Positions 234 to 46,913 of a stretch of DNA of 64,000 nt are shown in pieces. The stretch's first letter is position 1. The number at the start of each line of letters is the position of its first letter. Below the pieces are notes generated by a model. It was given only the letters and a program-made list of their open reading frames with translations. It was not told where the DNA came from and searched no databases. The stretch covers positions 19,395 to 83,394 of the forward strand of contig JBDIBI010000023.1 of NCBI GenBank assembly GCA_039812885.1, written 5' to 3'. The DNA comes from Blastocatellia bacterium. Lineage in GTDB: Bacteria > Acidobacteriota > Blastocatellia > Chloracidobacteriales > JADJPF01. The position numbers were made by a program, and so were the translations under genes.

Positions 234-836
234 TTATTTCATTTTGGCAACTAGACCAGTTTTAATATCAGCAGAAATTGGAGAAGCACCTAACCAAATT
301 GACCAAATACCTCTAGCCAATACAGGATCTTGGAAAGTAGCTTTGGTTTGTCCATTAGCTATAAACTCAATTTTTCCGCCTTGAGTCCAATGCAAAACAA
401 TCTCTTGATTAGTCTTCATATCTACTTGTGCAGCTAAGAAAGCATCAGCATTTTTCTTTGCAGGAGAATTTGCATAATTAGGAATGTTGCTTTGTAAACT
501 TTCACCAAAAGCTTCTCTAATTTTTCCTGCATCAACGTCACGAACAAAATGCATGGTAATTTGCTTTGCTGGGCCATCGGAAAGTAATTGTGTATAAGGA
601 TCTGCTGCTTTGTTGATCTTGCTAGCATCCATATAGGAAGCAATTGCATAAACTTTGAAAATAGCTTTCTTTCTGATACCTACGCCAGTGATGGTTGCTT
701 TTGCTCCACCTACACTAACTTCAGCAGGAAAACTAACACCGCTAGATGGTTCAGTAACTTGTGCGTAAGTTGGTGAAAAACAAAATAGTAATGCTAATAG
801 TGCGAAAAAAGAAAAAACGAAATTTCTTCTAGACAT
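234..836 (-). CDS. chalcone-isomerase-fold (CHI-like) secreted protein
   Basis: 200-aa ORF with an N-terminal signal peptide (FSPTYAQV). The segment GVGIRKKAIFKVYAIASYMD resembles the bacterial CHI-like family. Confidence 0.5.
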   Translation of the reverse strand: MSRRNFVFSFFALLALLFCFSPTYAQVTEPSSGVSFPAEVSVGGAKATITGVGIRKKAIFKVYAIASYMDASKINKAADPYTQLLSDGPAKQITMHFVRDVDAGKIREAFGESLQSNIPNYANSPAKKNADAFLAAQVDMKTNQEIVLHWTQGGKIEFIANGQTKATFQDPVLARGIWSIWLGASPISADIKTGLVAKMK

Positions 837-1183
837 CTTTAAACTTTTGCTCCTTAAATTGATTATTTTTGAGATTATATATTTGGATTAGAAGATTTTC
901 CCTCGATTAGCTCAATATAGCAAGTCTTTTTATATAATCTGCTTTCCATTGCTAGGCTATATATTTTAACTATGGATCACTACATTTTATTGATTTATTT
1001 ATGGGTTATAATACTTTTGGCTTTCTAAGATTAGTAGGAAAGTTTTTATTTTTTATTTTTTATTTCTGATTTTTACTAGTGTAATTTTGTAGGTAAAATT
1101 AGAATATTACTTTGGGAACATAAATATTTCTTTTAGAGTCTAATAATAAAAATCTATTTTTGTATAACTAAGGGTGAAACTAT

Positions 1184-4100
1184 ATGAGAAAAGCAGGCAA
1201 AAATACCTTTGCTATTTTTGTTCTAGTCTCGATTATTGCACTGTTTGCAGGTGTTTGGCTTTATTTTTATCCTCAACAAGTGAAAAAGACAATTACTAAA
1301 AATTTTATAGTCTCTACAACTAAAAAAGGTTTGCAGTTTCGCTTGAGTGAAGGTGAAATGGAAGTTCCAACAAATGTCCCTATCGCTAAAGCAACAAAAC
1401 TCTCAGATAGTGAAGCCGAAAAAGTGTTAAGTAGGCTAGAACCACTAAAAGCTGATGAAGAAGACAAACAAGATTTTGCCTTAAGAGAAAAATCTCTTCC
1501 ACCTCCTAAGACAGGAGAGGTAATAACAACAAAATTTCCTCCTGACCAAAATATCAAGGCTGAAGAAGTAGCAAAAGGCCCTTTACAGGTGTTGCGCTAT
1601 TCTCCTAAGGATGATGTACCAATAGCTCCTAATGTAAGCATTACATTTTCACAGCCAATGGTTGCATTAAGTTCTCAGGAAGAAGCAAGCAAAACTGTTC
1701 CTGCAAAAATTAGCCCTGAAGTAGCAGGACATTGGCGATGGTTAGGCACAAAAACATTAGTCTTTGAGCCTAAAGATAAACGCTTGCCAATGTCTACTGA
1801 ATACACTGTAGAAGTTCCAGCAGGGACTAAATCTGTTATAGGTCAAAGTTTAGCTTCTGCTGTAACTTGGAAGTTTAGAACTCCTACTTTGACTCTAAAA
1901 AAATATTTTCCAACGGAAAATTCTGTTAATACTAATCCATTGATTTATTTAGAGTTTGACCAAGCTATAGACAAAAATCTTTTATTAAATCATCTTTCCC
2001 TAGTAGGAGCTACTAATAAGGAATATAAACTTAGACTTGCTACAGAAAATGAAATTCAAGATGAAGCTGATAAAAATACAAATGTCAGAACTCTAATCAA
2101 TGCAGCTAAAGACAAATGCTGGTTAGCTGTAAAGGTTGACAACAAACTGTTAGGAGATGTTGTAGACCTTTTGCCCAAAGATACTAATTTTGTGGTAAGT
2201 GTTGTAAGAGGAACCCCATCAACTGAAGGCTCGCTTACAACAACTAACAAACAAGATTTTTACTTCAGAACCTATAGTCCACTGAAAATAATTTCACAAT
2301 CTTGTAAAGATTATGTATGTGATCCAACATCCAATATAGAAGTTAAGCTAAATAATAAAATTAATCCTGATTCTATAGATATTTCTAAAGTAGTAATAAA
2401 CCCTACATTGCCAGGAATGAAGTTAATAATTTCAGAAAATACAGTCTACATAGAAGGTAAACTAAGAGGAGAGGCAAATTATATTCTCAAGCTTGAAAAA
2501 GAGTTTGCCAAAGACGTTTTTGGTCAATATCTTGAGCATTCTGAGGTTTTGAATTTTCCAATATCAAAGGCAAAAAAACAGCTAAATTCTCTGGGTGCGG
2601 ATTTTTTAATCTTAGATCCTTTTGCCTCAGCTAAATTGCCTGTCTTTAGCACAAATCACAATGAGCTTAAAGTAAGCGTTTATGCTGTTTCACCTGAAGA
2701 CTGGAAAGATTTTGCTAAGATGCAGGAAAATTTTTCTGCATCTTATGACAAACCCGTTAATTATCAACGTCCTGTAGGAAAATTTCTATATTCAAAAGTG
2801 ATAACACCTGCAAATCAACCTGATGAGCAGGTGGAAACAGATATAGATCTAAGTGAAGCATTCCAAAATGGAAGAAGCCAAGCTTTTGTTTTTATTGAGC
2901 CTACAACTCAGCCCAAAAGTTATTGGGAACGACAATACATAAGAAAATGGGTTCAATATAGCCAAATAGGCTTGGATGCAGCCGTAGACAATGAAGAAAT
3001 GCTAGTTTGGGCTAATTCTATAAAAACAGGTAAACCGTTGGCTGGGGTAGAAGTTTCCTTAAGAAACTCAACTGCTGTTACTGGTGCAGATGGACTTGCT
3101 CATCTCAAGCTTGAAAATGCTAGTTCAAAGGACAAACCTAGTTTTTTAATAGCAAAAAGTAAGAACGATACAGCTATTTTACCTAAAATTAGTTATTATA
3201 ATACAGCTATTTTATCTAGGACTGAGTACTCTGATGAAACTTGGTCAACCATCACAACACCAGACACACTATCTTGGTATGTAATTGATGACAGAAAGAC
3301 TTACAAGCCAGGTGAAAAAGTAACAATAAAAGGATGGGTAAGAGTTAGCGAAAATAAAAAAGGTGGAGATATAAAACTTGCAGGTCAAATAAAAACAATC
3401 AATTACACACTTAACGATAGTCAAGGTAATAAAATATCCACAGGAACGTTACAAGTTAATCCACTAGGTGGTTTTAATGGAGAACTTGCTTTGCCTAGTA
3501 CTATGAATTTGGGTAATGCTTATTTAACATTGGAAGCTTTGCCAAAGGCATATGAAAATCAAACATACTCACATACTTTTCAGGTACAAGAATTTAGACG
3601 ACCTGAATTTGAAGTTTCAACAAAAGCTGATTCAAATGCTTATTTGATAGGTGAGTATGCAAATGTAACCGTATCAGCTAATTACTATGCTGGAGGAACC
3701 TTAAACAATGCTGATGTTAATTGGCAAGTTAGTTCTTCTCCAACTACTTACACTCCTCCAAATCGTAGTGAATACATTTTTGGCAAATGGACTCCTTGGT
3801 GGGGAAGTTTTGATTATGAAGGTTATAGTCGTAGAGGACGCTATAGTAGTTACACAACAAGCGAAGATAGTGAATATAATTCAGAGCGTTTTGCAGGAAA
3901 AACTAGCCCAACAGGAACACATAACCTAAGAATAGATTTTGATGCTGTTAATCCTATAACTCCAAGCAGCATTAATGTTCAAGCTTCAGTAAGTGATGTT
4001 AATAGACAAACTTGGACATCAACTTCTACTTTGCTAGTACATCCATCAAGTCTTTATGTAGGGCTAAAGAGTGAAAAAACTTTTGTTGGACAAAATGAAC

Positions 4101-7100
4101 CTTTCATTCTTAAATCAATAGTATGTGATATAGATGGAAAACTTATTCCTAACACTTCCATAAATTTTAAGTTAGTCAGACTTGACTATGAATATGACAG
4201 TCAAGGCAGATACAAGAGCAAAGAAGTTGATCCACAAACTCAAACAATAACATCAAAAGATGATGCAGTAGAAGTTAGGTTTGTTCCTAAAGAAGGAGGC
4301 TCTTACAAACTTACAGCAACAGTAGTTGACCAAAAAGGACGTAAAAATCAAACAGAGCTAACTCTTTGGGTTACTGGTGGTAAAGTCTTACCAAGCAGAG
4401 ATTTAACACAAGAAAAGATTCAATTAATTCCTGATAAGAAAGAATATGCTGTTGGTCAAACTGCTCAAATCTTGCTTCAAGCTCCTTTCTATCCAGCAGA
4501 AGGACTCTTAACCTTGCACCGCTTAGGCATTGTTAAAACTGAGCGATTTACTGTTGATTCAGCTACTTACATAATCAAAATTCCTATTGAAGAAAGATAT
4601 TTGCCTAATATTGAACTTCAAGTTGAATTGATAGGAGAATCAAGCAGGAAACAATCGTCTGATAACTCAAATGATCAATTATCAAAGCGACCAGCCTTTG
4701 CAGTAGGGCAGTTGAATTTATCAATTCCACCTGCTTCACGTAGTTTAACGGTAGAAGCAACACCTAGAGAAAAAGCCATTGAGCCAGCAGGAGAAACAAC
4801 TATAGACTTAAAACTTACAGATGCTTCAAAACGAGCCGTTGCAAATGCTGAAGTAGCTTTGTTTGTTGTAGATGAGGCTATTTTAGCTCTTTCTAATTAT
4901 CAAATGAGTAACCCGTTAGACGTTTTTTATGCTTCTCGACCATCTTCTGTAACAAATAGCCATTCGCGAAGTTATGTTTTTTTAGCTAATCCCAAAGATG
5001 TAGAAACACAAGGCGAGTTAGTAATAAATGCCAATACATCAGTTCCGACATCAGAGCCTCGTACAGAGAACACAGGTTCTATTGTGACAAAAGATTTAGG
5101 TGGAGTAGCAGATGGAGTAGTCGGTGGAATAGTCGGTGGAGTAGTTGGTGGAGTAGTTGGAAGTAGCTCTGCTTCTGAACCACCACCACCGCCGCCTATG
5201 AGCTATAAAGATAGGCCAGCTAATAAAGCTACTTTTTTAATAAGAAGATCTGAAGGTGTAACAAGGTCTCATTTTGCACGTGAACAACTTCAACCATCTA
5301 TAAAAGTTAGAGAAAACTTTAATGCTTTAGCAGTGTTTGAAGCAGCATTATCAACAGACAACAATGGACATGCAGAGGTAAAAGTAAAACTTCCAGATAG
5401 CTTAACCAAATACAGAATAATGGCAATAGCAGTGGCAGGTGAAAACCGCTTTGGTTCAGGAGAATCAAGCATTACAGCGCGTATGCCATTGATGGTTAGA
5501 CCATCAGCACCACGTTTTCTAAACTTTGGAGATAGATTTGAATTTCCAGTAGTAGTGCAAAATCAGACAGATAAACCAATGAGTGTAGATGTAGCAATGC
5601 GTGCTACAAATGCAACTTTGACAGAGGGGTTAGGTCGTCGAGTAGATGTTCCAGCAAATGAACGGGTAGAGGTTCGTTTTCCTGTTTCTGCTGAAATGGC
5701 AGGTAAAGCTAGATTCCAAGTAGGAGTAGTGTCAGGCAAATGGAGCGATGCAGCTCAAGTTAGTTTACCTGTTTGGACTCCAGCCACTACAGAAGCTTTT
5801 GCTACATATGGGACATTTGAAAGTAATGCCATAATTCAACCAGTTAAAGCTCCTGCTGATACATATAAACAGTTTGGAGGTTTAGAGGTATCTACTTCAT
5901 CAACACAACTTCAAGAGTTAACAGATGCAGTACTTTACATAGTGTCTTATCCTTATGAGTGTTCTGAGCAAATTTCTTCTAGAATCCTTGCAATTGCAGC
6001 ATTGAAAGATGTTTTGTCAGCATTTAAGGCAAAAGGTTTACCTAGTGAGGAAGAAATAAATGCAAGAGTTGCAAAAGACCTAGATAAGCTTAAAAACATG
6101 CAAGGCTATGACGGAGGGTTTGGTTTCTGGAGGCCAAATGATACAAATCCATTTGTGACAATTCACGTAGCACACGCACTACAACGAGCTAAACTAAAAG
6201 GCTATAACATTCCTCAAGATATGTTAGACCGTGTTCATGAATACTTAAGGAACATAGAATCACATATTAATGGCTACTCACCAGAAACCACAATGTCAGT
6301 TATTGCCTATTCACTTTACGTAAGAAATTTAATGGGTGATAAAGATGTTGCCAAAGCTAAGAGTATTCTCAATTCAGTTTCACTAGATAAAACACCAATG
6401 GAAACAATAGGTTGGTTATGGCCTGTGTTTACAGGGGATTCAAGCTCAACCAAGGAATTAGAAGCTATTAGAAAGTTTGTTAACAATAGAGCCACTGAAA
6501 CTGCTGCAACTGCTCATTTTGTAACAAATTATGCTGAATCAAACTACTTGTTATTAGCTTCTAATTTTAGAACAGATGCAATACTTCTAGATGCTTTAAT
6601 AGGGGATCAACCTAATAGCGATTTAATACCTAAGCTAGTTAGAGGGCTTCTAGATCATAGAACAGCAGGAAGATGGGAAAGCACTCAAGAAAATGCTTAT
6701 GTATTGCTAGCACTTGACCGATATTTTAGAACATATGAGAAAGTAACACCTAACTTTATAGCTAGAGTTTGGTTAGGCGATAATTATGCTGGAGAACATT
6801 CATTTGTTGGGCGAACTACTGAAAAGTACCAGGTAAATATCCCAATGAGTTATTTAACAAATAGTGAGCAAAACCTTGTAATAAGCAAAGATGGAGCAGG
6901 TAGAATTTATTATCGAGCAGCTATGAATTATGCACCAAAGAGTTTGGATTTACCTGCGGCAGATTATGGTTTTGTTGTTGAAAGGAAATATGAAGCAGTA
7001 GACAATCCTTCAGATGTAACAAAGACTTCAGATGGAACATGGCGAATCAAAGCAGGTGCTAGAGTTAGAGTTAAATTAAGTATGGTTGCACAATCAATGC

Positions 7101-7450
7101 GCTATCATGTTGCACTAGTAGATCCACTAGCAGCAGGACTAGAAGCATTAAATCCAGCACTTGCTAATACAGGTGCAGTGCCTCCAGAGAATAACCTTAG
7201 TCAGCAAAATAATGCTTCTAGATATTGGTGGTGGAGTGGATTTTGGTATCAACATGAAAACTTTAGAGATGAACGAATAGAAGCATTTACTACATTACTT
7301 TTGGATGGTGTTTACTCTTATAGCTATGTAGCAAGAGCTACTACAATAGGGAGCTTTGTTGTTGCTCCTACAAAGGCTGAAGAGATGTATCATCCTGAAA
7401 CTTTTGGTAGAAGCAAGACTGATAAGGTTGTTGTTTATGAGGCAAAATAG
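1184..7450 (+). CDS. alpha-2-macroglobulin family protein, thioester-containing, membrane-anchored (copy A)
   Basis: 2088-aa ORF with one N-terminal TM helix (FAIFVLVSIIALFAGVWLYF) and no lipobox Cys. The thioester motif YPYECSEQ has its Cys codon at 5960-5962. Size and layout fit bacterial A2M/ECAM-like proteins. GGGTGA lies upstream of the ATG. Confidence 0.85.
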   Translation: MRKAGKNTFAIFVLVSIIALFAGVWLYFYPQQVKKTITKNFIVSTTKKGLQFRLSEGEMEVPTNVPIAKATKLSDSEAEKVLSRLEPLKADEEDKQDFALREKSLPPPKTGEVITTKFPPDQNIKAEEVAKGPLQVLRYSPKDDVPIAPNVSITFSQPMVALSSQEEASKTVPAKISPEVAGHWRWLGTKTLVFEPKDKRLPMSTEYTVEVPAGTKSVIGQSLASAVTWKFRTPTLTLKKYFPTENSVNTNPLIYLEFDQAIDKNLLLNHLSLVGATNKEYKLRLATENEIQDEADKNTNVRTLINAAKDKCWLAVKVDNKLLGDVVDLLPKDTNFVVSVVRGTPSTEGSLTTTNKQDFYFRTYSPLKIISQSCKDYVCDPTSNIEVKLNNKINPDSIDISKVVINPTLPGMKLIISENTVYIEGKLRGEANYILKLEKEFAKDVFGQYLEHSEVLNFPISKAKKQLNSLGADFLILDPFASAKLPVFSTNHNELKVSVYAVSPEDWKDFAKMQENFSASYDKPVNYQRPVGKFLYSKVITPANQPDEQVETDIDLSEAFQNGRSQAFVFIEPTTQPKSYWERQYIRKWVQYSQIGLDAAVDNEEMLVWANSIKTGKPLAGVEVSLRNSTAVTGADGLAHLKLENASSKDKPSFLIAKSKNDTAILPKISYYNTAILSRTEYSDETWSTITTPDTLSWYVIDDRKTYKPGEKVTIKGWVRVSENKKGGDIKLAGQIKTINYTLNDSQGNKISTGTLQVNPLGGFNGELALPSTMNLGNAYLTLEALPKAYENQTYSHTFQVQEFRRPEFEVSTKADSNAYLIGEYANVTVSANYYAGGTLNNADVNWQVSSSPTTYTPPNRSEYIFGKWTPWWGSFDYEGYSRRGRYSSYTTSEDSEYNSERFAGKTSPTGTHNLRIDFDAVNPITPSSINVQASVSDVNRQTWTSTSTLLVHPSSLYVGLKSEKTFVGQNEPFILKSIVCDIDGKLIPNTSINFKLVRLDYEYDSQGRYKSKEVDPQTQTITSKDDAVEVRFVPKEGGSYKLTATVVDQKGRKNQTELTLWVTGGKVLPSRDLTQEKIQLIPDKKEYAVGQTAQILLQAPFYPAEGLLTLHRLGIVKTERFTVDSATYIIKIPIEERYLPNIELQVELIGESSRKQSSDNSNDQLSKRPAFAVGQLNLSIPPASRSLTVEATPREKAIEPAGETTIDLKLTDASKRAVANAEVALFVVDEAILALSNYQMSNPLDVFYASRPSSVTNSHSRSYVFLANPKDVETQGELVINANTSVPTSEPRTENTGSIVTKDLGGVADGVVGGIVGGVVGGVVGSSSASEPPPPPPMSYKDRPANKATFLIRRSEGVTRSHFAREQLQPSIKVRENFNALAVFEAALSTDNNGHAEVKVKLPDSLTKYRIMAIAVAGENRFGSGESSITARMPLMVRPSAPRFLNFGDRFEFPVVVQNQTDKPMSVDVAMRATNATLTEGLGRRVDVPANERVEVRFPVSAEMAGKARFQVGVVSGKWSDAAQVSLPVWTPATTEAFATYGTFESNAIIQPVKAPADTYKQFGGLEVSTSSTQLQELTDAVLYIVSYPYECSEQISSRILAIAALKDVLSAFKAKGLPSEEEINARVAKDLDKLKNMQGYDGGFGFWRPNDTNPFVTIHVAHALQRAKLKGYNIPQDMLDRVHEYLRNIESHINGYSPETTMSVIAYSLYVRNLMGDKDVAKAKSILNSVSLDKTPMETIGWLWPVFTGDSSSTKELEAIRKFVNNRATETAATAHFVTNYAESNYLLLASNFRTDAILLDALIGDQPNSDLIPKLVRGLLDHRTAGRWESTQENAYVLLALDRYFRTYEKVTPNFIARVWLGDNYAGEHSFVGRTTEKYQVNIPMSYLTNSEQNLVISKDGAGRIYYRAAMNYAPKSLDLPAADYGFVVERKYEAVDNPSDVTKTSDGTWRIKAGARVRVKLSMVAQSMRYHVALVDPLAAGLEALNPALANTGAVPPENNLSQQNNASRYWWWSGFWYQHENFRDERIEAFTTLLLDGVYSYSYVARATTIGSFVVAPTKAEEMYHPETFGRSKTDKVVVYEAK

Positions 7451-8456: not shown

Positions 8457-8630
8457 AGCCACTTTTTAGATCTTAGATTGAAACATTTAATCTAGCGAAT
8501 TTTACAATAAACTCTTCTTTTTCTAAGGAACATTATTGGCAGTTGTGCGACTATAGGTTAAGCGCTAGAAAACTAGTGCATTTATCTAATTTTAAAAGAC
8601 TTCCAAAAGTTCTAAAAATAGGTGGAATTT

Positions 8631-11600
8631 ATGAGAAAAGCTGGAAAAAGTACGTTTGCTATTTTTGCTCTAGTCTCGATGGTTGCAAGTATTGCGGGTG
8701 TTTGGCTTTATTTTCACCCGGAACAAGTGAAAAGCCTAAAGAAGGCTATTGCAAAAAATTTTACAGTTTCTAAAAGCAAAAAAGGTTTGCAGTTTCGCTT
8801 GAGTGAAGGTGAAATGGAAGTTCCAACAAATGTCCCTATCGCTAAAGCAACAAAACTCTCAGATAGTGAAGCCGAAAAAGTGTTAAGTAGGCTAGAACCA
8901 CTAAAAGCTGATGAAGAAGACAAACAAGATTTTGCCTTAAGAGAAAAATCTCTTCCACCTCCTAAGACAGGAGAGGTAATAACAACAAAATTTCCTCCTG
9001 ACCAAAATATCAAGGCTGAAGAAGTAGCAAAAGGCCCTTTACAGGTGTTGCGCTATTCTCCTAAGGATGATGTACCAATAGCTCCTAATGTAAGCATTAC
9101 ATTTTCACAGCCAATGGTTGCATTAAGTTCTCAGGAAGAAGCAAGCAAAACTGTTCCTGCAAAAATTAGCCCTGAAGTAGCAGGACATTGGCGATGGTTA
9201 GGCACAAAAACATTAGTCTTTGAGCCTAAAGATAAACGCTTGCCAATGTCTACTGAATACACTGTAGAAGTTCCAGCAGGGACTAAATCTGTTATAGGTC
9301 AAAGTTTAGCTTCTGCTGTAACTTGGAAGTTTAGAACTCCTACTTTGACTCTAAAAAAATATTTTCCAACGGAAAATTCTGTTAATACTAATCCATTGAT
9401 TTATTTAGAGTTTGACCAAGCTATAGACAAAAATCTTTTATTAAATAGTCTTTCTTTAATAGGATATAACGAAAATGACAAGAACTATAAGCTTAGGCTT
9501 GCAACAGAAAGTGAAATCCAAGAAGAAGTAGATAAAGATATAAATTTTAAAATTCTACTCAATGAAGCTAAAGATAAATATTGGCTAGCTGTAAAAGTTG
9601 ATAACACTGTGTTAGGTAATATTGAAGAACCTTTACCTAAGGACAGTAACTTTGGTGTAATTGTAAACATTGGTGCTTCAGGGGAAGGAGCACTTAAAAC
9701 AACTAGTAAACAAGAGTTTTCCTTTAAGACTTATAGTCCACTAAGAGTGACTTGGCAATCTTGCAAGGATTATGAATGCCGACCTGTAGACTATTTGCAA
9801 TTCAGTCTAAATAATCAACTTAGACCAAATTCTTTGGATATTTCTAAAGCAACAATAGAACCTAAAATACCAGGAATGACTATGATAGTTTCTGGTACTG
9901 TTGTAACAATTAGAGGTAAGTTGAAGGGAAGAATAACTTATAAGCTAAAGCTTGAAAAAGAATTTATTAAAGATACTTTCGGTCAATATCTTGAAAAAAC
10001 TCAAGAAATTAACTTCCCAATATCAGCAGCAAAAAAACAACTCACTTCAATAGGTGGTGAATTAATAGCACTAGATCCATTTGCTCCTGCTAAATTGCCA
10101 GTTTTTAGCACAAATCACAATGAACTTAAAGTAACTATTTATTCTATTTCTGCCGAAGAATGGAAAAATTTTAGTAGAATTAAAGAGGAAATTGCTCAAG
10201 CCTACAATAACCCAACTGCTTATCAAAGACCTGTGGGAACCCTTTTATATTCAAAAGTGATAACACCTGCAAATAAACCTGATGAGCAAGTGGAAACAGA
10301 TATAGACCTAAGTGCAGCATTCCAAAATGGAAGAGGCCAAGCTTTTGTTTTTATTGAACCTACAACTCAACCTAAAAATTATTGGGAACGAGAATACATA
10401 AGAAAATGGGTTCAATATACTCAAATAGGTTTGGATGCAGCTGTAGACAATGAAGAAATGCTAGTTTGGGCTAACTCTCTAAAAACAGGTAAGCCTTTGG
10501 CTGGTGTAGAAGTTTCCTTAAAAAACTCAACTGCTGTTACTGGTGCAGATGGACTTGCTCACCTCAAGCTTGAAAATGCTGCTCCAAAAGATGTGCCTGT
10601 TTTGATTGCAAAAAGTGGTAATGATACAGCTATTTTACCTCAGTCATCTTATGGTTATTATAGTACCACTTGGGCAAAAGCTAACACCTCAGATACGTTA
10701 TCTTGGTATGTAGTTGATGATAGAAAGACTTACAAGCCAGGTGAAAAAGTAACAATAAAAGGATGGGTAAGAGTTAGCGAAAATAAAAAAGGTGGAGATA
10801 TAAAACTTGCAGGTCAAATAAAAACAGTGAGTTACACACTTAATGATAGTCAAGGCAACAAAATATCCACAGGAACATTACAAGTTAATCCGCTAGGTGG
10901 TTTTAATGGAGAACTTGCTTTGCCTGGTACTATGAATTTGGGTAATGCTTATTTAACATTGGAAGCTTTGCCAAAGGCATATGAAAATCAAACATACTCA
11001 CATACTTTTCAGGTACAAGAATTTAGACGACCTGAATTTGAAGTTTCAACAAAAGCTGATTCAAATGCTTATTTGATAGGTGAGTATGCAAATGTAACCG
11101 TATCAGCTAATTACTATGCTGGAGGAACCTTAAACAATGCTGATGTTAATTGGCAAGTTAGTTCTTCTCCAACTACTTACACTCCTCCAAATCGTAGTGA
11201 ATACATTTTTGGCAAATGGACTCCTTGGTGGGGAAGTTTTGATTATGAAGGTTATAGTCGTAGAGGACGCTATAGTAGTTACACAACAAGCGAAGATAGT
11301 GAATATAATTCAGAGCGTTTTGCAGGAAAAACTAGCCCAACAGGAACACATAACCTAAGAATAGATTTTGATGCTGTTAATCCTATAACTCCAAGCAGCA
11401 TTAATGTTCAAGCTTCAGTAAGTGATGTTAATAGACAAACTTGGACATCAACTTCTACTTTGCTAGTACATCCATCAAGTCTTTATGTAGGGCTAAAGAG
11501 TGAAAAAACTTTTGTTGGACAAAATGAACCTTTCATTCTTAAATCAATAGTATGTGATATAGATGGAAAACTTATTCCTAACACTTCCATAAATTTTAAG

Positions 11601-14600
11601 TTAGTCAGACTTGACTATGAATATGACAGTCAAGGCAGATACAAGAGCAAAGAAGTTGATCCACAAACTCAAACAATAACATCAAAAGATGATGCAGTAG
11701 AAGTTAGGTTTGTTCCTAAAGAAGGAGGCTCTTACAAACTTACAGCAACAGTAGTTGACCAAAAAGGACGTAAAAATCAAACAGAGTTAACTCTTTGGGT
11801 TACTGGTGGTAAAGTGTTACCAAGCAGAGATTTAACACAAGAAAAAATTCAATTAATTCCTGACAAGAAAGAATATGCTGTTGGTCAAACTGCTCAAATC
11901 ATGCTTCAAGCTCCTTTCTATCCAGCAGAAGGACTCTTAACCTTGCGCCGCTTAGGCATTGTTAAGACCGAGCGATTTACTGTTGATTCAGCTACTTACA
12001 CAATCAAAGTTCCTATTGAAGAAAGCTATTTACCTAATGTTGAACTTCATGTTGATTTAGTGGGTGAGTCAGAAAGAAATCCAGATTCTAGTAGCCCAGG
12101 TTCTCAACTGTTAAAACGGCCAGCCTTTGCAGTAGGGCAGTTGAATTTATCAATTCCACCAGTTTCACGTAGTTTAACGGTAGAAGCAACACCTAGAGAA
12201 AAAGCCATTGAGCCAGCAGGAGAAACAACTATAGACTTAAAGCTTACAGATGCTTCAAAACGAGCTGTTGCAAATGCTGAAGTAGCTTTGTTTGTTGTAG
12301 ATGAGGCTATTTTAGCTCTTTCTAACTATCAAATGAGTAATCCGTTAAGTGTTTTTTATGCTTCTCGGCCAGCATCAGTATCAGACCATCATTTAAGAAG
12401 TTCTGTTGTACTAGCTAATCCTGAAGATATAGAAGCACAAGAGGAACTTGCTAGAAATAAAGAGGCAGGAAAACCTAAACCAATACCTTCAGCTGATAAA
12501 CTTGCTGAAATGGATGATGTGCTTGGAGGTGTGGAAGGTGGCGTAGCTGGTGGTGCAATGAACCGAGTTGCTGCTGCTCCTGCTGCTGAACCTCCTATGG
12601 CACCAATGGAAGCTAAAAAAGCTGAAAGAGCAGATGTAGCTAATGCAGTTCCAGCTAGGTCTTTAAAGGCTTCAAAACCTCCTGCATCCAATTCTCCTAT
12701 AAAAGTTAGAGAAAACTTTAATGCCTTGGCAGTGTTTGAAGCAGCATTATCAACAGACAGCAATGGACATGCAGAGGTAAAAGTAAAACTTCCAGATAGC
12801 TTAACCAAATACAGAATAATGGCAATAGCAGTAGCAGGTGAAAACCGCTTTGGTTCAGGAGAATCAAGCATTACAGCGCGTATGCCATTGATGGTTAGAC
12901 CATCAGCACCACGTTTTCTAAACTTTGGAGATAAGTTTGAATTTCCAGTAGTAGTGCAAAATCAGACAAATAAACCAATGAGTGTAGATGTAGCAATGCG
13001 TGCTACAAATGCAACTTTGACAGAGGGGTTAGGTCGTCGAGTAGATGTTCCAGCAAATGAACGGGTAGAGGTTCGTTTTCCTGTTTCTGCTGAAATGGCA
13101 GGTAAAGCTAGATTCCAAGTAGGAGTAGTGTCAGGCAAATGGAGCGATGCAGCTCAAGTTAGTTTACCTGTTTGGACTCCAGCCACTACAGAAGCTTTTG
13201 CTACATATGGGACATTTGAAAGTAATGCCATAATTCAACCAGTTAAAGCTCCTGCTGATACATATAAACAGTTTGGAGGTTTAGAGGTATCTACTTCATC
13301 AACACAACTTCAAGAGTTAACAGATGCAGTACTTTACATAGTGTCTTATCCTTATGAGTGTTCTGAGCAAATTTCTTCTAGAATCCTTGCAATTGCAGCA
13401 TTGAAAGATGTTTTGTCAGCATTTAAGGCAAAAGGTTTACCTAGTGAGGAAGAAATAAATGCAAGAGTTGCAAAAGACCTAGATAAGCTTAAAAACATGC
13501 AAGGCTATGACGGAGGGTTTGGTTTCTGGAGGCCAAATGATACAAATCCATTTGTGACAATTCACGTAGCACACGCACTACAACGAGCTAAACTAAAAGG
13601 CTATAACATTCCTCAAGATATGTTAGACCGTGTTCATGAATACTTAAGGAACATAGAATCACATATTAATGGCTACTCACCAGAAACCACAATGTCAGTT
13701 ATTGCCTATTCACTTTACGTAAGAAATTTAATGGGTGATAAAGATGTTGCCAAAGCTAAGAGTATTCTCAATTCAGTTTCACTAGATAAAACACCAATGG
13801 AAACAATAGGTTGGTTATGGCCTGTGTTTACAGGGGATTCAAGCTCAACCAAGGAATTAGAAGCTATTAGAAAGTTTGTTAACAATAGAGCCACTGAAAC
13901 TGCTGCAACTGCTCATTTTGTAACAAATTATGCTGAATCAAACTACTTGTTATTAGCTTCTAATTTTAGAACAGATGCAATACTTCTAGATGCTTTAATA
14001 GGGGATCAACCTAATAGCGATTTAATACCTAAGCTAGTTAGAGGGCTTCTAGATCATAGAACAGCAGGAAGATGGGAAAGCACTCAAGAAAATGCTTATG
14101 TATTGCTAGCACTTGACCGATATTTTAGAACATATGAGAAAGTAACACCTAACTTTATAGCTAGAGTTTGGTTAGGCGATAATTATGCTGGAGAACATTC
14201 ATTTGTTGGGCGAACTACTGAAAAGTACCAGGTAAATATCCCAATGAGTTATTTAACAAATAGTGAGCAAAACCTTGTAATAAGCAAAGATGGAGCAGGT
14301 AGAATTTATTATCGAGCAGCTATGAATTATGCACCAAAGAGTTTGGATTTACCTGCGGCAGATTATGGTTTTGTTGTTGAAAGGAAATATGAAGCAGTAG
14401 ACAATCCTTCAGATGTAACAAAGACTTCAGATGGAACATGGCGAATCAAAGCAGGTGCTAGAGTTAGAGTTAAATTAAGTATGGTTGCACAATCAATGCG
14501 CTATCATGTTGCACTAGTAGATCCACTAGCAGCAGGACTAGAAGCATTAAATCCAGCACTTGCTAATACAGGTGCAGTGCCTCCAGAGAATAACCTTAGT

Positions 14601-14852
14601 CAGCAAAATAATGCTTCTAGATATTGGTGGTGGAGTGGATTTTGGTATCAACATGAAAACTTTAGAGATGAACGAATAGAAGCATTTACTACATTACTTT
14701 TGGATGGTGTTTACTCTTATAGCTATGTAGCAAGAGCTACTACAATAGGGAGCTTTGTTGTTGCTCCTACAAAGGCTGAAGAGATGTATCATCCTGAAAC
14801 TTTTGGTAGAAGCAAGACTGATAAGGTTGTTGTTTATGAGGCAGGAAAATAA
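8631..14852 (+). CDS. alpha-2-macroglobulin family protein, thioester-containing, membrane-anchored (copy B)
   Basis: The ORF track starts at a GTG (8622). The ATG at 8631 is homologous to the copy A start (MRKAGK) and has an AGGTGG RBS. The same YPYECSEQ motif is present (Cys codon 13359-13361). The C-terminal ~715 residues match copy A except for 3 substitutions and the last residues. Confidence 0.85.
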   Translation: MRKAGKSTFAIFALVSMVASIAGVWLYFHPEQVKSLKKAIAKNFTVSKSKKGLQFRLSEGEMEVPTNVPIAKATKLSDSEAEKVLSRLEPLKADEEDKQDFALREKSLPPPKTGEVITTKFPPDQNIKAEEVAKGPLQVLRYSPKDDVPIAPNVSITFSQPMVALSSQEEASKTVPAKISPEVAGHWRWLGTKTLVFEPKDKRLPMSTEYTVEVPAGTKSVIGQSLASAVTWKFRTPTLTLKKYFPTENSVNTNPLIYLEFDQAIDKNLLLNSLSLIGYNENDKNYKLRLATESEIQEEVDKDINFKILLNEAKDKYWLAVKVDNTVLGNIEEPLPKDSNFGVIVNIGASGEGALKTTSKQEFSFKTYSPLRVTWQSCKDYECRPVDYLQFSLNNQLRPNSLDISKATIEPKIPGMTMIVSGTVVTIRGKLKGRITYKLKLEKEFIKDTFGQYLEKTQEINFPISAAKKQLTSIGGELIALDPFAPAKLPVFSTNHNELKVTIYSISAEEWKNFSRIKEEIAQAYNNPTAYQRPVGTLLYSKVITPANKPDEQVETDIDLSAAFQNGRGQAFVFIEPTTQPKNYWEREYIRKWVQYTQIGLDAAVDNEEMLVWANSLKTGKPLAGVEVSLKNSTAVTGADGLAHLKLENAAPKDVPVLIAKSGNDTAILPQSSYGYYSTTWAKANTSDTLSWYVVDDRKTYKPGEKVTIKGWVRVSENKKGGDIKLAGQIKTVSYTLNDSQGNKISTGTLQVNPLGGFNGELALPGTMNLGNAYLTLEALPKAYENQTYSHTFQVQEFRRPEFEVSTKADSNAYLIGEYANVTVSANYYAGGTLNNADVNWQVSSSPTTYTPPNRSEYIFGKWTPWWGSFDYEGYSRRGRYSSYTTSEDSEYNSERFAGKTSPTGTHNLRIDFDAVNPITPSSINVQASVSDVNRQTWTSTSTLLVHPSSLYVGLKSEKTFVGQNEPFILKSIVCDIDGKLIPNTSINFKLVRLDYEYDSQGRYKSKEVDPQTQTITSKDDAVEVRFVPKEGGSYKLTATVVDQKGRKNQTELTLWVTGGKVLPSRDLTQEKIQLIPDKKEYAVGQTAQIMLQAPFYPAEGLLTLRRLGIVKTERFTVDSATYTIKVPIEESYLPNVELHVDLVGESERNPDSSSPGSQLLKRPAFAVGQLNLSIPPVSRSLTVEATPREKAIEPAGETTIDLKLTDASKRAVANAEVALFVVDEAILALSNYQMSNPLSVFYASRPASVSDHHLRSSVVLANPEDIEAQEELARNKEAGKPKPIPSADKLAEMDDVLGGVEGGVAGGAMNRVAAAPAAEPPMAPMEAKKAERADVANAVPARSLKASKPPASNSPIKVRENFNALAVFEAALSTDSNGHAEVKVKLPDSLTKYRIMAIAVAGENRFGSGESSITARMPLMVRPSAPRFLNFGDKFEFPVVVQNQTNKPMSVDVAMRATNATLTEGLGRRVDVPANERVEVRFPVSAEMAGKARFQVGVVSGKWSDAAQVSLPVWTPATTEAFATYGTFESNAIIQPVKAPADTYKQFGGLEVSTSSTQLQELTDAVLYIVSYPYECSEQISSRILAIAALKDVLSAFKAKGLPSEEEINARVAKDLDKLKNMQGYDGGFGFWRPNDTNPFVTIHVAHALQRAKLKGYNIPQDMLDRVHEYLRNIESHINGYSPETTMSVIAYSLYVRNLMGDKDVAKAKSILNSVSLDKTPMETIGWLWPVFTGDSSSTKELEAIRKFVNNRATETAATAHFVTNYAESNYLLLASNFRTDAILLDALIGDQPNSDLIPKLVRGLLDHRTAGRWESTQENAYVLLALDRYFRTYEKVTPNFIARVWLGDNYAGEHSFVGRTTEKYQVNIPMSYLTNSEQNLVISKDGAGRIYYRAAMNYAPKSLDLPAADYGFVVERKYEAVDNPSDVTKTSDGTWRIKAGARVRVKLSMVAQSMRYHVALVDPLAAGLEALNPALANTGAVPPENNLSQQNNASRYWWWSGFWYQHENFRDERIEAFTTLLLDGVYSYSYVARATTIGSFVVAPTKAEEMYHPETFGRSKTDKVVVYEAGK

Positions 14853-18250: not shown

Positions 18251-20920
18251 CTACTTACGCCATTCATCAATTAAGGAAGCTATCAAACCTGTCCAACCAG
18301 TTTGATGAGCTGCTCCTAAGCCTGCCCCTGTGTCACCGTGGAAATATTCATAGAAATGTAAGTAGTCGCGCCAATGTGGATCTTCTTGGAATTTTTTGAT
18401 TTTGCCATAGATTTGACGATTACCTTGATCATTGCGAGAAAACATTCTAATCATACGATTTGCAATTTCTTCAGCCATTTTATCCAAAGAATAATCAGAA
18501 CCATCTGGGCCTTTTACCGTAAAGTCTGTTCCATAAGCTTTTCCAAGCTTGCGTAATGATTCAATTAAAAGGAAAGAAGTTGGGAACCAAATAGGGCCAC
18601 GCCAGTTAGAGTTTCCACCTTTAATCTTACAATCTGCTTCAGCTGGCTCATAACGCACTTCACTTCGACCAAATACAAATGGGTGTTTCTCATGTACTTT
18701 AGAAAGACTACGTATACCCCAGTCTGATAAAAACTCTTCAGGATCAAGTATGCGTTGTAGTAGTCCTCTTAATTGGTCTTCATTAACTATAGCTAGAACG
18801 TGAACTTGTTTACCTTCACGTTCAACTGTGTAACAACAACGTTGGACTACGTCTTGACGATTTTCTAAGAACCAGTTTAAGTTAGTGTTAAACTCTTTAA
18901 ATGGTTGAATCCAATCAACTTCTATACGTTCAATTGCATAAATTGGAATAACTCCAACTAGTGAACGAACGCGGAATTTGTGGAAAGAACCATCAGGGTA
19001 GCGCAAGACATCATAGAAGAATCCATCTTTTTCATCCCAAAGTGAATAGTTCTTGCCGCCCATTTTCTTCATTGCTGCACCAACATAAATGTAGTGTTGG
19101 AAGAACTTAGTTGCTAGGCTCTCATAAACATGGTTTTCTTTAGCTAGTTCTAGGGCAATGCGCATTAGATTTAAGCAATACATACCCATCCAACCTGTAG
19201 CATCAGATTGTTCTAGGACTACGCCACCTGGCAATTTTTCACTACGATCAATAACAGTAATGTTATCTAGACCAAGGAATCCACCTTCAAAAACGTTGTT
19301 TCCTTCAGAGTCAACTTTGTTAATCCACCAAGCAAAATTAATTAACAGTTTATGGAAGCATTTTTCTAGAAAAGCTCTATCTCCTACGCCTGTTCTGACA
19401 CGTTCCATATTGTAAACACGCCAACAAGCCCAAGCTAAAACAGGTGGGTTAAGATCAGAAAACTCCCATTCATAAGCTGGAATTTGACCGTTAGGATGTT
19501 GAAATTGCTCAAAGAGCATTAACCAAAGCTGTTCTTTTGCAAATTCTGGATCTACTAACGCTAAAGCAATACAGTGGAAAGCTAAATCCCAAGCAGCAAA
19601 CCAAGGATATTCCCATTTATCAGGCATAGAAAGAATACGCATTGAATTTAAGTGCATCCAATGTTGATTACGAATCTTCCATCTGGAATCTGGTGGTGGA
19701 CAGTTAGGATTATCACCTTCTAGCCAACGATGTATATCAAATAGATATATTTGCTTAGTCCAAAGCATACCTGCTAGAGCTTGACGTTGAATTAGTTTTT
19801 CATCTTCTGAGGCATTTTTAGGATGGACTACATTGTAAAAATCATCAGCATCAGTTTTACGTTGAGTGACTAACTTGTCAAAATCTTTTAATGGATTATC
19901 AAGTTTTTCTGGAGTTAAACGCAGCCGTAAAACAACAGATTTTCCAGCAGGAACATTTAATTCATAATGCAAACAGCTTTTAGTTCCTTTGTTATCAGGT
20001 CTAATAGCTGCTTCGTTGCCATAAACAACATACTCATGAAAAGCATCCTTAAAATACTTTCTTTCTGTATGTGAATGTGGGCCATAAACCCGTTTCATAT
20101 TGGTTTCATTGTCAGTAAAAAGTACTTTAGCTGTTGATTCTGCATAAAGATAACGTGGCCCAAGACGATAAGTAAAAGGTAGGTTCTTAAGCATATCTGC
20201 TGAAGTGTCATCAGCTACAATACAAGTAAAATCTTTTCCAGACTGTCCAAGTTGAATAACAGGTTCAGACTTATATTGTTCACCCCAAGCCCAAGTGTTT
20301 CTAAACCATAGATGAGGGAGTACATGAAGAGGAGCATCTTCAGTGCCTCTATTAAAAGCTTCTATGCGGATATAAATATCTTCTGGACTAGCTTTGGCAT
20401 ATTCAACAAAAACATCAAAATATTTGTTTTGATCAAAAATTCCTGTATCTAAGAGTTCATATTCTTCACCACGTCCATGGCGGCTTTGATTTTCTTGGAT
20501 TAACTCCCAATAAGGATAGGTAGCTTGTGGATATTTATAAAGATACTTCATGTAAGAATGTGTAGGTGTACTATCTAGGTAAAAATAATATTCCTTAACA
20601 TCTTCACCATGGTTACCTTCACTAGGTACAACGCCAAAAGCGCGCTCTTTAAGAATAGGATCATGGCCATTCCAAAGAGCAAGAGCAAAAACTAGAAGTT
20701 GATAACGATCACAAATACCTGCTAGACCGTCTTCTCCCCAACGATAAGCTTTGCTACGTGCTTTATCGTGAGGTAAATATTCCCAAGCATTGCCATCAGG
20801 ACTATAATCTTCTCTTACTGTTCCCCAAGCACGCTCGCTTACATATGGTCCCCAGCGTCGCCAAGACGACTGGCCTTCAGCTTTAGCTTTTAATCTGTTA
20901 TGTTCAGCAGTGGTTGACAT
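18251..20920 (-). CDS. GH63-like (MGH1-like) glucosidase
   Basis: 889 aa. The N-terminus [29 protein letters not shown] and the overall length match the widespread ~890-aa bacterial glucosidase family, recalled from memory. Confidence 0.6.
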
Positions 20921-21116
20921 AATGGTTTGCCCTCTTAAGATTTTTAGGAGTTTCCCAAAGTACGGGGGGGAGTGCGATTATACACACAATCGCCTAATAT
21001 AAGATAGGCCAAAGTTTATGGCAAGTCGCTAAGGCTATGTTCTAAGATAAATTTTGTATTTGTTAATATAACCTAGATAGTCATATTTACGTTATTTATC
21101 TTGCTATTTTGTTTAC

Positions 21117-21224
21117 ATATTAATAACCCCAGGTTACGCTCGTTTATTAATAACCCCAGGTTGCGCTCGTTTATTAATAACCCTAGGTTACGCTCGTTTA
21201 TTAATAACCCCAGGTTGCGCTCGT
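21117..21224 (+). repeat. 4 tandem 27-bp units, consensus TTATTAATAACCCCAGGTTRCGCTCGT (left-arm-only half hairpins)
   Basis: The CCCC cores sit at 21127, 21154, 21181 and 21208, read directly from the sequence. Confidence 0.95.
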
Positions 21225-21245
21225 TACACTCGCTAAAACCTGGGG
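21208..21245 (+). repeat. conserved hairpin, variant 1
   Basis: CCCCAGGTT (21208-21216) pairs with AACCTGGGG (21237-21245). The loop is GCGCTCGTTACACTCGCTAA, followed by CTAATATGGGTTGAGCG. Confidence 0.9.
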
Positions 21246-21313
21246 CTAATATGGGTTGAGCGAATTATAATTTGAACTAATTTAATAAATGAGTTTGTTT
21301 CCAACAGAGTCAT

Positions 21314-21422
21314 TTATTAGTAACTCCCAGGTTGCGCTCGTTTATTAATAACCCCAGGTTACGCTCGTTTATTAATAACCCCAGGTTGCGCTCGTTTATT
21401 AATAACCCCAGGTTGCGCTCGT
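21314..21422 (+). repeat. second block of 4 tandem 27-bp units (first unit 28 bp)
   Basis: Cores sit at 21325, 21352, 21379 and 21406. With the following hairpin and spacer this forms a ~198-bp higher-order repeat of 21117-21313. Confidence 0.95.
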
Positions 21423-21443
21423 TACACTCGCTAAAACCTGGGG
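21406..21443 (+). repeat. conserved hairpin, variant 1 (second copy)
   Basis: CCCCAGGTT (21406-21414) pairs with AACCTGGGG (21435-21443). The sequence is identical to 21208-21245. Confidence 0.9.
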
Positions 21444-21519
21444 CTAATATGGGTTGAGCGAATTATAATTTGAACTAATTCAAATAATTAGATTCGTTTC
21501 CAACAGAGTCATATATTAG

Positions 21520-21645
21520 CCCGGGGTTTTAGCGAAGCGCAACCCCGGGTTCAAGGGGTTTTAGCGAAGCGCAACCCCGGGTTCAAGGGGTTTTAGCGAA
21601 GCGCAACCCTGGGTTCAAGGGGTTTTAGCAAAGCGCAACCCTGGG
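21520..21645 (-). repeat. 4 tandem 32-bp hairpin units (GGGGTTTTAGCGAAGCGCAACCCCGGGTTCAA), family hairpin variant 2 in inverted orientation
   Basis: GGGG starts at 21523, 21555, 21587 and 21619. The first unit pairs CCCGGGGTT (21520-21528) with AACCCCGGG (21541-21549). On the minus strand it continues CTAATATATGAC like the canonical element. Confidence 0.9.
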
Positions 21646-21663: not shown

Positions 21664-22806
21664 TCAATGAAAATGAGGCATAACTTCTTTTGCAAACATT
21701 TCCATATTTTTGTTTACTAAATCTTCTGGCATATCTCCAGCATGTGCGCCACCTATGAGTATTCCAGCTTTCATTTCCTCAGTGTATATACTAAGTTTTT
21801 CTATTACTGTAGCAGGGCTTCCAACAATAATATAACCTTGATCAATTAATTCTTGGAAAGTAAGTTTATGGAAAGGTTTAATACCTGAGCCAAGTAATGA
21901 GGCTAAGGATTTTTCTGTTACATAACCTGGTGGAAAGTTAAAATGTTGAGGAACATGCAAGCCTTTATGGAAAAGCCACATAACATGGGGTTCAGCTTCT
22001 TTTCTTGCAATTTCGTCTGTTTCTGCAACAAAGGTTGGTATAGCAAAAGCTAATTGATTGGGTTGGGCTTGATAGCCAAATTTTTCTTCTGCTATTTGTC
22101 TATAAAGCGCATAGGCTTTACGTTGGTAAGTTTGAGGAGAAAAAACCATCATAAATGGATAGCGGTGTTTAGCTGCAAACTCAATAGTTTCAAGACTTCC
22201 AGTGCCAGGGAGCCAAATTGGAGGATGAGGTTTTTGCAAAGGTCGAGGCCAAATATTTACATAGCGATAGTTATAATGTTGTCCTTCAAATGCAAAAGGC
22301 CCGGCTTTAGTCCAAGCTTGAATTATTAAATCATGTGCTTCATAAAAACGATCACGAGAATGAGCAGGATTAATATTATAAGAAAAATATTCCATTCCTG
22401 TTCCACGAACAAAGCCAGAAATGATTCTGCCTCCGCTAATTACATCTAGCATAGCTATTTCTTCTGCTACTCTTAGTGGATCATCATGCAAAGGTAAGGC
22501 GTTACCAACAATTGCAATTTTGGCCTTTTGAATTCTATGTACAAGCATTGCTGCAATAATATTAGGTGAAGGCATAGTTCCATATGCAGTTTGATGATGT
22601 TCATTAACGCATACTCCATCCCAGCCTAATTCTGCTGCTTTAACTAGCTCGTCTATATAGCGGTTATAAAGCTTATGACCTTTTTCTGGATCATATAAAC
22701 TATTAGGTAATGTAATCCAAGTTGAATCATATTGTTTATGAAAATCTGGTGGCAAGTAAGGATATGGCATTAAGTGAAAGTAATAAAACTCCATCTTTTT
22801 TGTCAT
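21664..22806 (-). CDS. LLM-class (luciferase-like) flavin-dependent oxidoreductase
   Basis: 380 aa. WDGVCVNEHHQTAYGTMPSP and RVAEEIAMLDVISGGR are typical of luciferase-like monooxygenases. Confidence 0.75.
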   Translation of the reverse strand: MTKKMEFYYFHLMPYPYLPPDFHKQYDSTWITLPNSLYDPEKGHKLYNRYIDELVKAAELGWDGVCVNEHHQTAYGTMPSPNIIAAMLVHRIQKAKIAIVGNALPLHDDPLRVAEEIAMLDVISGGRIISGFVRGTGMEYFSYNINPAHSRDRFYEAHDLIIQAWTKAGPFAFEGQHYNYRYVNIWPRPLQKPHPPIWLPGTGSLETIEFAAKHRYPFMMVFSPQTYQRKAYALYRQIAEEKFGYQAQPNQLAFAIPTFVAETDEIARKEAEPHVMWLFHKGLHVPQHFNFPPGYVTEKSLASLLGSGIKPFHKLTFQELIDQGYIIVGSPATVIEKLSIYTEEMKAGILIGGAHAGDMPEDLVNKNMEMFAKEVMPHFH

Positions 22807-46425: not shown

Positions 46426-46442
46426 TCTCAATCCTTTCGCAA

Positions 46443-46481
46443 CCTGGGGTTGCGCTCGCTAACGCTCGCTAAAACCCCAGG
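46443..46481 (+). repeat. conserved hairpin, variant 3
   Basis: CCTGGGGTT (46443-46451) pairs with AACCCCAGG (46473-46481). The loop is GCGCTCGCTAACGCTCGCTAA, followed by CTAATATATATA. It begins 18 nt from the MBL gene ATG. Confidence 0.9.
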
Positions 46482-46900: not shown

Positions 46901-46913
46901 CAACCCATATTAG

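Follow-up and report, generated by a model that had tools for sequence, protein, structure and literature searches.

The 743-bp gap between the genes for a GH63/MGH1-like glucosidase and a luciferase-like monooxygenase (LLM), in the 64-kb stretch of contig JBDIBI010000023.1 analysed here (the window, always meaning the whole stretch), holds a composite block of repeats at 21117-21645 (locus 1), which we interpret as probably a cluster of repetitive extragenic palindromic sequences (REPs) of the kind that make up bacterial interspersed mosaic elements (BIMEs). A second block (locus 2, 46441-47031) follows the same plan in the opposite orientation, with the genes for an S46 (Dpp7-like) peptidase and a metallo-beta-lactamase-fold (MBL) protein as its neighbours. 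Both blocks are intergenic, lie between co-oriented genes and start 5-19 nt past a stop codon. The ordered anatomy given for locus 1 in a preliminary description, made from the sequence alone, was recovered in all its repeats, and the gap reported there between the two genes matches the list of open reading frames (ORFs).

Tandem repeats were scored with Tandem Repeats Finder (TRF). Locus 1 comprises a 27-mer repeated 4.0 times (21118-21225, 93% matches) and again 4.1 times (21313-21423, 95% matches), a 198-bp module repeated 2.0 times (21117-21519, 93% matches) and a 32-mer repeated 3.8 times (21523-21645, 97% matches). The order in locus 2 is a 27-mer array (3.7 copies), a type-1 hairpin, an 81-mer array (4.2 copies) and a second hairpin. 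A 17-nt core has 12 matches in the window, with 0.07 expected, and the hairpin-foot motif TCGCTAAAACCNNNGGCTAATAT, which joins the 3' arm to the foot, has five (0.01 expected).

All of the hairpins adopt one shared single-strand fold, in which a 9-bp lower stem, a 3-nt TAA bulge and a 3-bp GCG/CGC upper stem enclose a loop of 3, 11 or 12 nt; CTAATAT then follows, which on the other strand places (ATA)TTAG directly at the foot of the stem. They measure 30-39 nt and fold at -11 to -13 kcal/mol (z -3.5 to -5.3). The bulge, TAA or TTA according to strand, separates the lower stem from the upper stem in every copy, and TTAG abuts the stem in all five footed copies, this being the piece with the highest copy number. 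The type-1 hairpin is formed by the last 27-mer and a single right arm, as the preliminary description had proposed, with the stem CCCCAGGTT/AACCTGGGG (-11.5 kcal/mol, z -3.6). Type-2 stems are CCTGGGGTT/AACCCCAGG and CCCGGGGTT/AACCCCGGG, folding at -13.4 kcal/mol (z -4.1) in the long-loop form and -13.1 kcal/mol (z -5.3) in the short-loop form (21520-21549), and all stem variants stay complementary (CCCCAGG/CCTGGGG, CCTGGGG/CCCCAGG and CCCGGGG/CCCCGGG). The loop of the long-loop REP (46453-46472) is a perfect tandem duplication of the 10-nt CGCTCGCTAA (two copies by TRF), and the long-loop REPs seem to derive from short-loop ones through this duplication.

Each locus carries one type-1 and one type-2 hairpin, inverted and with their feet inward. 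In locus 1 these are the hairpins at 21406 and 21520 with their inverted CTAATAT and ATATTAG feet, which had been likened to the ends of a miniature mobile element, a resemblance that we judge to be correct; the doublet that they form (21404-21551) adopts a long hairpin fold as a whole, at -42.2 kcal/mol (z -9.2). A single arm, the first part of the loop and an A/T linker of 9-10 nt make up each 27-mer, for which we use the term half-REP. The further proposal that four left arms compete for one right arm is not supported: in 21117-21260 only the proximal arms pair with each other, in the minimum-energy fold as in the centroid fold, and the whole stretch scores little better than shuffles (z -2.3). 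That these arrays are not CRISPR was rightly stated from the outset: their linkers are identical within an array and only 9-10 nt long, and no cas-like domains were found in the window. The features of both loci are collected in the table.

Table. Repeat features of the two loci and the genes bounding locus 1 (window coordinates). Depth is given relative to single copy unless stated otherwise.
Feature	Position	Strand	Description	Read depth
GH63/MGH1-like glucosidase gene	18251-20920	-	Start at 20920; 743-bp gap to the LLM gene
Half-REP array 1	21117-21225	-	Four 27-nt units (TRF and pattern matches), each an 18-nt left arm plus loop start (CCCCAGGTTRCGCTCGTT), then a 9-10-nt A/T linker (TATTAATAA)	~1.5-4x
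Type-1 REP, copy a	21208-21252	-	Hairpin 21208-21245 (9-bp stem, GCG/CGC upper stem, TAA bulge, 11-nt loop) and foot CTAATAT 21246-21252 (TTAG on the - strand)	~120x
Linker/tail 1	21253-21314	.	First ~15 nt (GGGTTGAGCGAATTA) part of the dispersed element, remainder low copy; loose ends 21265/21267	Drops ~1378 to ~169 to ~15 in X1
Half-REP array 2	21315-21423	-	Four 27-nt units in the second copy of the 198-bp module (TRF and repeat search)	
Type-1 REP, copy b	21406-21450	-	Identical to copy a	Fine-scale 640-4220 against ~11 for single copy (X1)
Linker	21451-21512	.	Between the inverted REPs of doublet 21406-21549	
Type-2 REP, short loop	21513-21549	+	Foot ATATTAG 21513-21519; hairpin CCCGGGGTT-TTA-GCG-AAG-CGC-AACCCCGGG 21520-21549	~135-170x
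32-nt short-loop REP copies	21550-21645	+	Three more, head-to-tail (TRF and repeat search); without TTAG foot, 6-bp stem	Down to ~25-35x
LLM gene	21664-22806	-	Stop at 21664	
Type-2 REP, long loop	46443-46488	-	Hairpin CCTGGGGTT...AACCCCAGG 46443-46481; foot CTAATAT 46482-46488	~27-50x
81-nt linker unit, 4.2 copies	46578-46916	.	Between the two inverted REPs of locus 2 (TRF); each unit begins with a REP-foot remnant (reverse complement: GGGCTAATATGAGTTGAGC)	
Type-1 REP, copy c	46907-46951	+	Foot ATATTAG 46907-46913; hairpin 46914-46951	Summed ~220-330x over bin 46896-46929
Half-REP array 3	46933-47031	+	3.7 units of 27 nt (AAACGAGCGCAACCTGGGGATTACAAA) by TRF; ends 5 nt from the S46 peptidase stop codon	~10-17x
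Hairpin-foot motif TCGCTAAAACCNNNGGCTAATAT	21230, 21428, 46466	+		
Hairpin-foot motif TCGCTAAAACCNNNGGCTAATAT	21513, 46907	-		

The repeats are high-copy and dispersed. Copy number was estimated by a depth proxy, for which contigs of four runs (X1, X2, X3 and X6) were mapped on both loci; the metagenomes that contain the window sequence derive from activated sludge and hot-spring mats. Against a unique-flank depth of ~11 in X1, ~10 in X2, 4-5 in X3 and 4-6 in X6, the summed depth in X1 reached 3450-4220 for CTCGCTAAAACCTGGGGCTAATATGGGT, 1490-1890 for the type-2 hairpin and 640-1300 for the left arm with loop, falling to 65-140 for one 27-mer unit. The hairpin with its CTAATAT foot was found at ~150-380x the depth of the flanking genes in the four metagenomes, and more than 100 distinct contigs carry pieces of the repeat. 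As the depth ratios are alike in all four runs, we argue that the copies therefore lie in the same genome as the flanks, and the family size is roughly 150-380 copies in a host genome of ~35% G+C. The elements are thus not confined to the two loci; their being unique to these was an outcome that the preliminary description had named as counting against it. With a depth of just ~2-4x single copy, which a collapsed local array would be expected to give, the 81-mer is local and not dispersed.

Loose contig ends place the edges of the element at 21208/21406, 21549, 46441-46443 and 46951. Contig joints link the type-1 foot to the type-2 foot through linkers that are much shorter (by 35-58 nt) than the one at 21451-21512, and the other copies are mostly inverted doublets of ~90 nt; some hairpins at the joints have an ATATTAG foot at either side. 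At the ends of several other contigs lie half-REP arrays that have different linkers (e.g. ATCAAAAAA) in the same register. Populations differ at the level of the units: in X1-X3, 23 nt (47009-47031) are missing from the contig that leads from the peptidase gene into locus 2, so the length of the array beside the peptidase stop codon differs between populations, and X6 shows base changes.

Within the window, a profile hidden Markov model (HMM) search detected no diverged copies beyond the two loci. The 17-nt core pattern occurs at 117 or more loci in genome contigs, all of them, among the matches listed, single and in genomes of at least 49% G+C. The 23-nt hairpin-foot motif had no match in the JGI metagenome contigs, where the family of the window organism is not represented. 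Viral contigs gave four single pattern matches, none with extended stems, a plasmid collection searched with the 148-nt doublet gave no match, and a protein search with a spurious 52-aa ORF that crosses array and hairpin recovered no further arrays. RNA runs ("random PCR" libraries) yielded low-depth fragments only, with repeat pieces enriched no more than their DNA copy number, and are uninformative on transcription.

Named homologues of the flanking proteins, at 74-81% identity, come from metagenome-assembled genomes (MAGs) of Blastocatellia and Acidobacteriota, and the host is an uncultured acidobacterium of ~35% G+C, probably of the class Blastocatellia. In its closest relative (glucosidase 92% and peptidase 88% identical, both proteins from one Logan sample) the gene order is kept at both sites, but the gaps are compact: 148 bp vs 743 bp in the window between the LLM and glucosidase genes, and 36 bp vs 605 bp between the peptidase and MBL genes. 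The repeat blocks border on a conserved glucosidase leader of ~115 bp and on the MBL ribosome-binding region. No copies of the family were found in the loci of the relatives, either by BLASTN of the modules against L119-L125 or by HMM search of L126-L129.

A parallel from another organism connects these hairpins to a transposase. JGI metagenome contigs were scanned with the pattern GGTTGCGCTN{1,14}CGCTAAAACC, which gave 54 matches, by estimate about the number expected by chance and mostly without an extended stem; three contigs (L157, L161 and L154) stand out among them. L157 (Ga0315910_10045884, 55% G+C) carries several hairpins of the form GTAG-GCTGGGTT-TTA-GCG-AAG-CGC-AACCCAGC as well as a second stem variant, and at 846-1797 inward-facing REP doublets lie on both sides of an ORF of 176 aa (1037-1564). 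The product of this ORF scores 207 bits (E 7.5e-62, cut-off 80) with NF047646, the model for REP-associated tyrosine transposases (RAYTs), vs 22 bits with the IS200 model; it matches the E. coli TnpA-REP structure 4ER8 with E 2e-51 and is ~51% identical to the annotated E. coli rayT product. To judge from these similarities L157 is a complete REPtron, with a predicted RayT-like REP-associated tyrosine transposase. Its doublet at 1590-1696 folds at -35 kcal/mol (z -7.6). The 22-nt core GGGTTGCGCTTCGCTAAAACCC is identical in the REPs of L157 and the short-loop REP of the window, and these fold exactly alike, with the foot in the same position (CTAC in L157, CTAA in the window).

L161 and L154 (JGI Ga0207639 contigs, 62-65% G+C) carry GTGG as the foot and share the GGTTGCGCTCG...CTCGCTAAAACC frame with the long-loop REPs of the window; their loop, CTCGTGCCT, is close to that of the window, CTCGTTACACT. 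A REP doublet in L161 (3874-4072) has 57-nt arms that are 93% complementary and 85 nt apart, and L154 carries a singleton at ~1640-1682. When the elements of the window were aligned with those of L157, L161 and L154, 89% of the stem cells were paired and six pairs had changed on both sides. The covariation score of 0.179, compared with 0.065 in shuffles, was reached by none of 500 shuffles, and all slid controls were lower.

Taking these results together, we consider it likely that the locus is a REP/BIME cluster of REPIN-like form with a TTAG foot, a new family of a known kind of element. We base this on the anatomy, the covarying hairpins, the high copy number, the compact gaps in the relative and the same-core REPtron in another organism. 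REPs are palindromes of 20-50 nt preceded by a conserved tetranucleotide, often in inverted pairs with a linker and as tandem copies (PMC8266576). The REPs that belong to group-2 RAYTs are long, and the bulge that interrupts them is needed for activity (PMC8266576), REP clusters reiterate in tandem together with flanking DNA (PMC3733652), and in Acidobacteria Y1 transposases are associated with high-copy hairpins (PMC6006769, PMC3733652). Here, the palindrome folds on a single strand, its stem is bulged as in the group-2 type, inverted pairs with a linker and tandem reiteration occur at both loci, and the family is high-copy and dispersed by the depth proxy, with both window loci extragenic. 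The preliminary description could not match the repeats to REP/BIME elements, a view that is not supported, as the defining REP architecture is present in hundreds of copies and the same 22-nt core flanks a RayT-like transposase gene in L157. Its suggestion to look for a RAYT or an IS200/IS605-type Y1 transposase pointed in the right direction.

The closest similarity is to the REP/BIME system of E. coli with its group-2 RAYT (TnpA-REP, RayT/YafM). Common to both are a long, imperfect, bulged palindrome with a G+C upper stem and a variable loop (PMC8266576), a tetranucleotide that is conserved next to the stem, although with a different first base, two stem variants (compare the y and z REPs) that are inverted, separated by a linker and reiterated in tandem, and hundreds of extragenic copies; the protein of the related REPtron in L157 is, as noted, about half identical to E. 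coli RayT. The foot is TTAG in the window but GTAG in E. coli, the host is an AT-rich acidobacterium, and no RAYT is found within the 64-kb window. Also, in the BIME descriptions examined only whole REP pairs form arrays, whereas the half-REP arrays of the window consist of the 3' arm, part of the loop and a linker, with a period of 27 nt. The REPINs of Pseudomonas fluorescens are similar in that the common form is an inverted doublet (~90-150 nt) that makes one long hairpin, and in that the insertion state differs between close relatives; however, the palindromes of Pseudomonas are short and perfect and have RAYTs of group 3, while those of the window are long and bulged. With L157 the window shares the identical 22-nt core, the fold, the foot position and inward-facing doublets, and with L161 and L154 the frame, the fold and the foot position. 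These three come from genomes of 55-65% G+C, their outer stems differ in sequence from those of the window yet stay complementary, their feet are GTAG or GTGG, the feet of the L161 doublet point outward, and the short stretches of these contigs examined hold no half-REP arrays. The same phylum is known for the hairpins of class-3 Y1 transposases or TIRYTs (~600 copies in Solibacter usitatus), which are likewise high-copy, tied to a Y1 HUH transposase and found as dimers or clusters (PMC6006769, PMC3733652). In the literature these count as atypical structures that have either long terminal inverted repeats or a CnGA foot; the hairpins of the window, in which no CnGA foot was found, resemble group-2 REPs.

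We envisage that the unit of the family, read on the foot strand as (ATA)TTAG, 9-bp stem, TTA bulge, GCG, variable loop, CGC and 9-bp stem, would be recognised as a folded single-stranded hairpin, including its bulge and foot, by a RAYT (TnpA-REP, a Y1 HUH enzyme) that is presumably encoded elsewhere in the genome. The type-1 and type-2 variants lie inverted with their feet inward and a linker between them, and the pair is able to form one long hairpin when single-stranded. We infer dispersal by a RAYT because of the parallel with L157. The arrays, in turn, may have grown by local tandem duplication, in which unequal exchange or replication slippage multiplied REP parts along with the linker next to them, and this growth would have produced the 27-nt half-REP, 32-nt REP and 81-nt linker arrays and the duplication of the 198-bp module. 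Local growth is suggested by the nested periodicities (27, 54 and 198; 32; 81) and by the unit-level differences between populations described above for X1-X3 and X6.

Several observations speak against assigning the locus to the REP/BIME elements. No transposase of any kind is encoded within the window, and a cognate RAYT of the host is hypothetical. In reported variants of GTAG the first G is always kept (PMC3733652), but the foot here is TTAG. The link to L157 began with a pattern search at chance level, and the sequence identity is partly there by construction; its weight comes from the context, namely the extended complementary stems, the several copies, the position of the foot and the adjacent RayT. 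The closest relative of the host is represented by ~29 kb, and the absence of the family from that relative applies to this stretch only. Finally, the half-REP arrays have a fixed 27-nt period and the same register at several loci, which simple slippage does not obviously explain, and tandem half-REP arrays are not described in the REP/BIME literature examined.

These arrays deserve separate consideration. The arrays of the two window loci have an identical 27-nt period despite their different linkers, and the array is either part of the copied unit and later homogenised, or made by a site-specific reaction. On the latter view the arrays would be footprints of a Y1-transposase reaction, in which repeated cleavage at a fixed site in the loop and at a fixed distance outside the stem is followed by strand transfer. 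This is suggested by the composition of the unit (3' arm, part of the loop and A/T linker), by the period of exactly 27 at two loci with different linkers and by the same ...CTCGTT register in contig ends from further loci, but we regard it as doubtful. If true, the arrays would be an in vivo record of REP copying. A related reading is that a group-2-type REP/RAYT system could be active in Acidobacteriota, with a REP core shared across very different G+C contents, which, if true, implies the horizontal spread of a REPtron.

Other kinds of mobile element can account for part of the evidence. If the locus were a miniature inverted-repeat transposable element (MITE), a non-autonomous deletion derivative of a DDE-type insertion sequence (IS) moved by cut-and-paste, the facing hairpin-plus-foot ends would be its terminal inverted repeats; the inverted ends that face each other across a linker, the doublet size of ~90-150 nt, the high copy number and the compact orthologous sites in the relative all agree with this. 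We nevertheless think it improbable, since no direct repeat accompanies the loose-end edges given above (at the two loci read, whose outer edges are obscured by the arrays), both ends are conserved bulged hairpins with covarying stems, a feature not required of terminal inverted repeats, and RayT in L157 has the same hairpin on its flanks. An IS200/IS605-derived palindrome-associated element (PATE) would be moved single-stranded by the TnpA of an IS and not by a domesticated single-copy RAYT. The enzyme superfamily is the same, subterminal hairpins with a tetranucleotide beside the stem fit the chemistry, and acidobacterial class-3 Y1 genes have been described as intermediate between IS and REPtron (PMC6006769). 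However, the ends of IS200/IS605 elements carry their hairpins on one strand, whereas the hairpins of the doublet are inverted with their feet on opposite strands, and the L157 ORF scores higher with the RAYT model than with the IS200 model, so that a PATE also has little probability in our view.

It might also be supposed that the hairpins are not mobile DNA but are primarily selected as RNA or DNA signals at gene ends, such as terminators, stabilisers of mRNA 3' ends or protein-binding sites, as both loci begin just past a stop codon between co-oriented genes and co-option of REPs for roles of this kind is known (PMC8266576, PMC3733652). As a primary function this is highly improbable: a terminator scan finds no site in the repeats and no U-run (T-run) follows the stems, relative to the genes the composite runs antisense at locus 1 but in the sense direction at locus 2, and a close relative does without the repeats at both sites. 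Rfam, in which a hit to a described non-coding RNA family had been named beforehand as contrary evidence, gave no match at the gathering threshold, and at E<=1 only a chance miRNA hit (E 0.84). Secondary co-option of the hairpins for roles at gene ends is possible. That the tandem copies are spurious products of long-read assembly of a MAG is extremely unlikely. The exact numbers of the 27-, 32- and 81-nt units are beyond the reach of 31-mer contigs, and the 23-nt difference in X1-X3 would fit an error, but independent short-read contigs of all four runs reproduce, at 99-100% identity, the junctions of flanks and arrays, the 32-mer junctions, array-internal pieces of 57 nt and the 81-nt piece 21436-21516. 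This excludes an assembly artefact as the source of the architecture, although not of the exact unit counts.

If the REP/BIME assignment is right, the label REP/BIME-type, and not that of a new class, fits ~1.1 kb of ordered repeats in the window and, when extrapolated to the whole genome, a few hundred sites, and the repeats explain why short-read assemblies of the window organism break at these sites. With this assignment, REP biology gains a bulged family with a TTAG foot from an AT-rich acidobacterium, and the core that it has in common with the GTAG- and GTGG-footed REPs of two other organisms offers natural variants for the reading of foot, bulge and loop by RAYTs. The half-REP arrays are the one feature outside current accounts and may bear on how REPs multiply.

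Some minor observations concern the surroundings of the repeats. The glucosidase leader (20921-21035) is kept in the relative with the 92% identical glucosidase (L124, 9886-10000); it contains a small hairpin, GCCTATCTTATATTAGGC, a C-run and a promoter-like site (21024-20996), and may be a regulatory leader. In the relative's 36-bp spacer (L126 9279-9314, AAATTAGCTCAACTATAGTCATTTTG), ATTAGCTCAACT is common, in inverted orientation, to window positions 46500-46525 and the 81-nt unit, and AGTCATTT is common to the linker of locus 1; this sharing could be due to chance, be a relic or hint at a target site. In L119 and L122 (glucosidase 88-89% identical), the glucosidase gene adjoins type IV pilus/type II secretion genes and not the monooxygenase, and gene order is changing quickly in this clade. 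Elsewhere in the window, two tandem alpha-2-macroglobulin-like genes of ~2080 aa (1184-7450 and 8622-14852) make up a direct duplication of 7.4 kb whose identity varies between stretches, from ~70% in some to 92-100% in others, which suggests recent partial gene conversion. The first of these genes contains a 12-nt tandem repeat, GGTGGAGTAGTC, present 4.9 times at 5099-5157 according to TRF.

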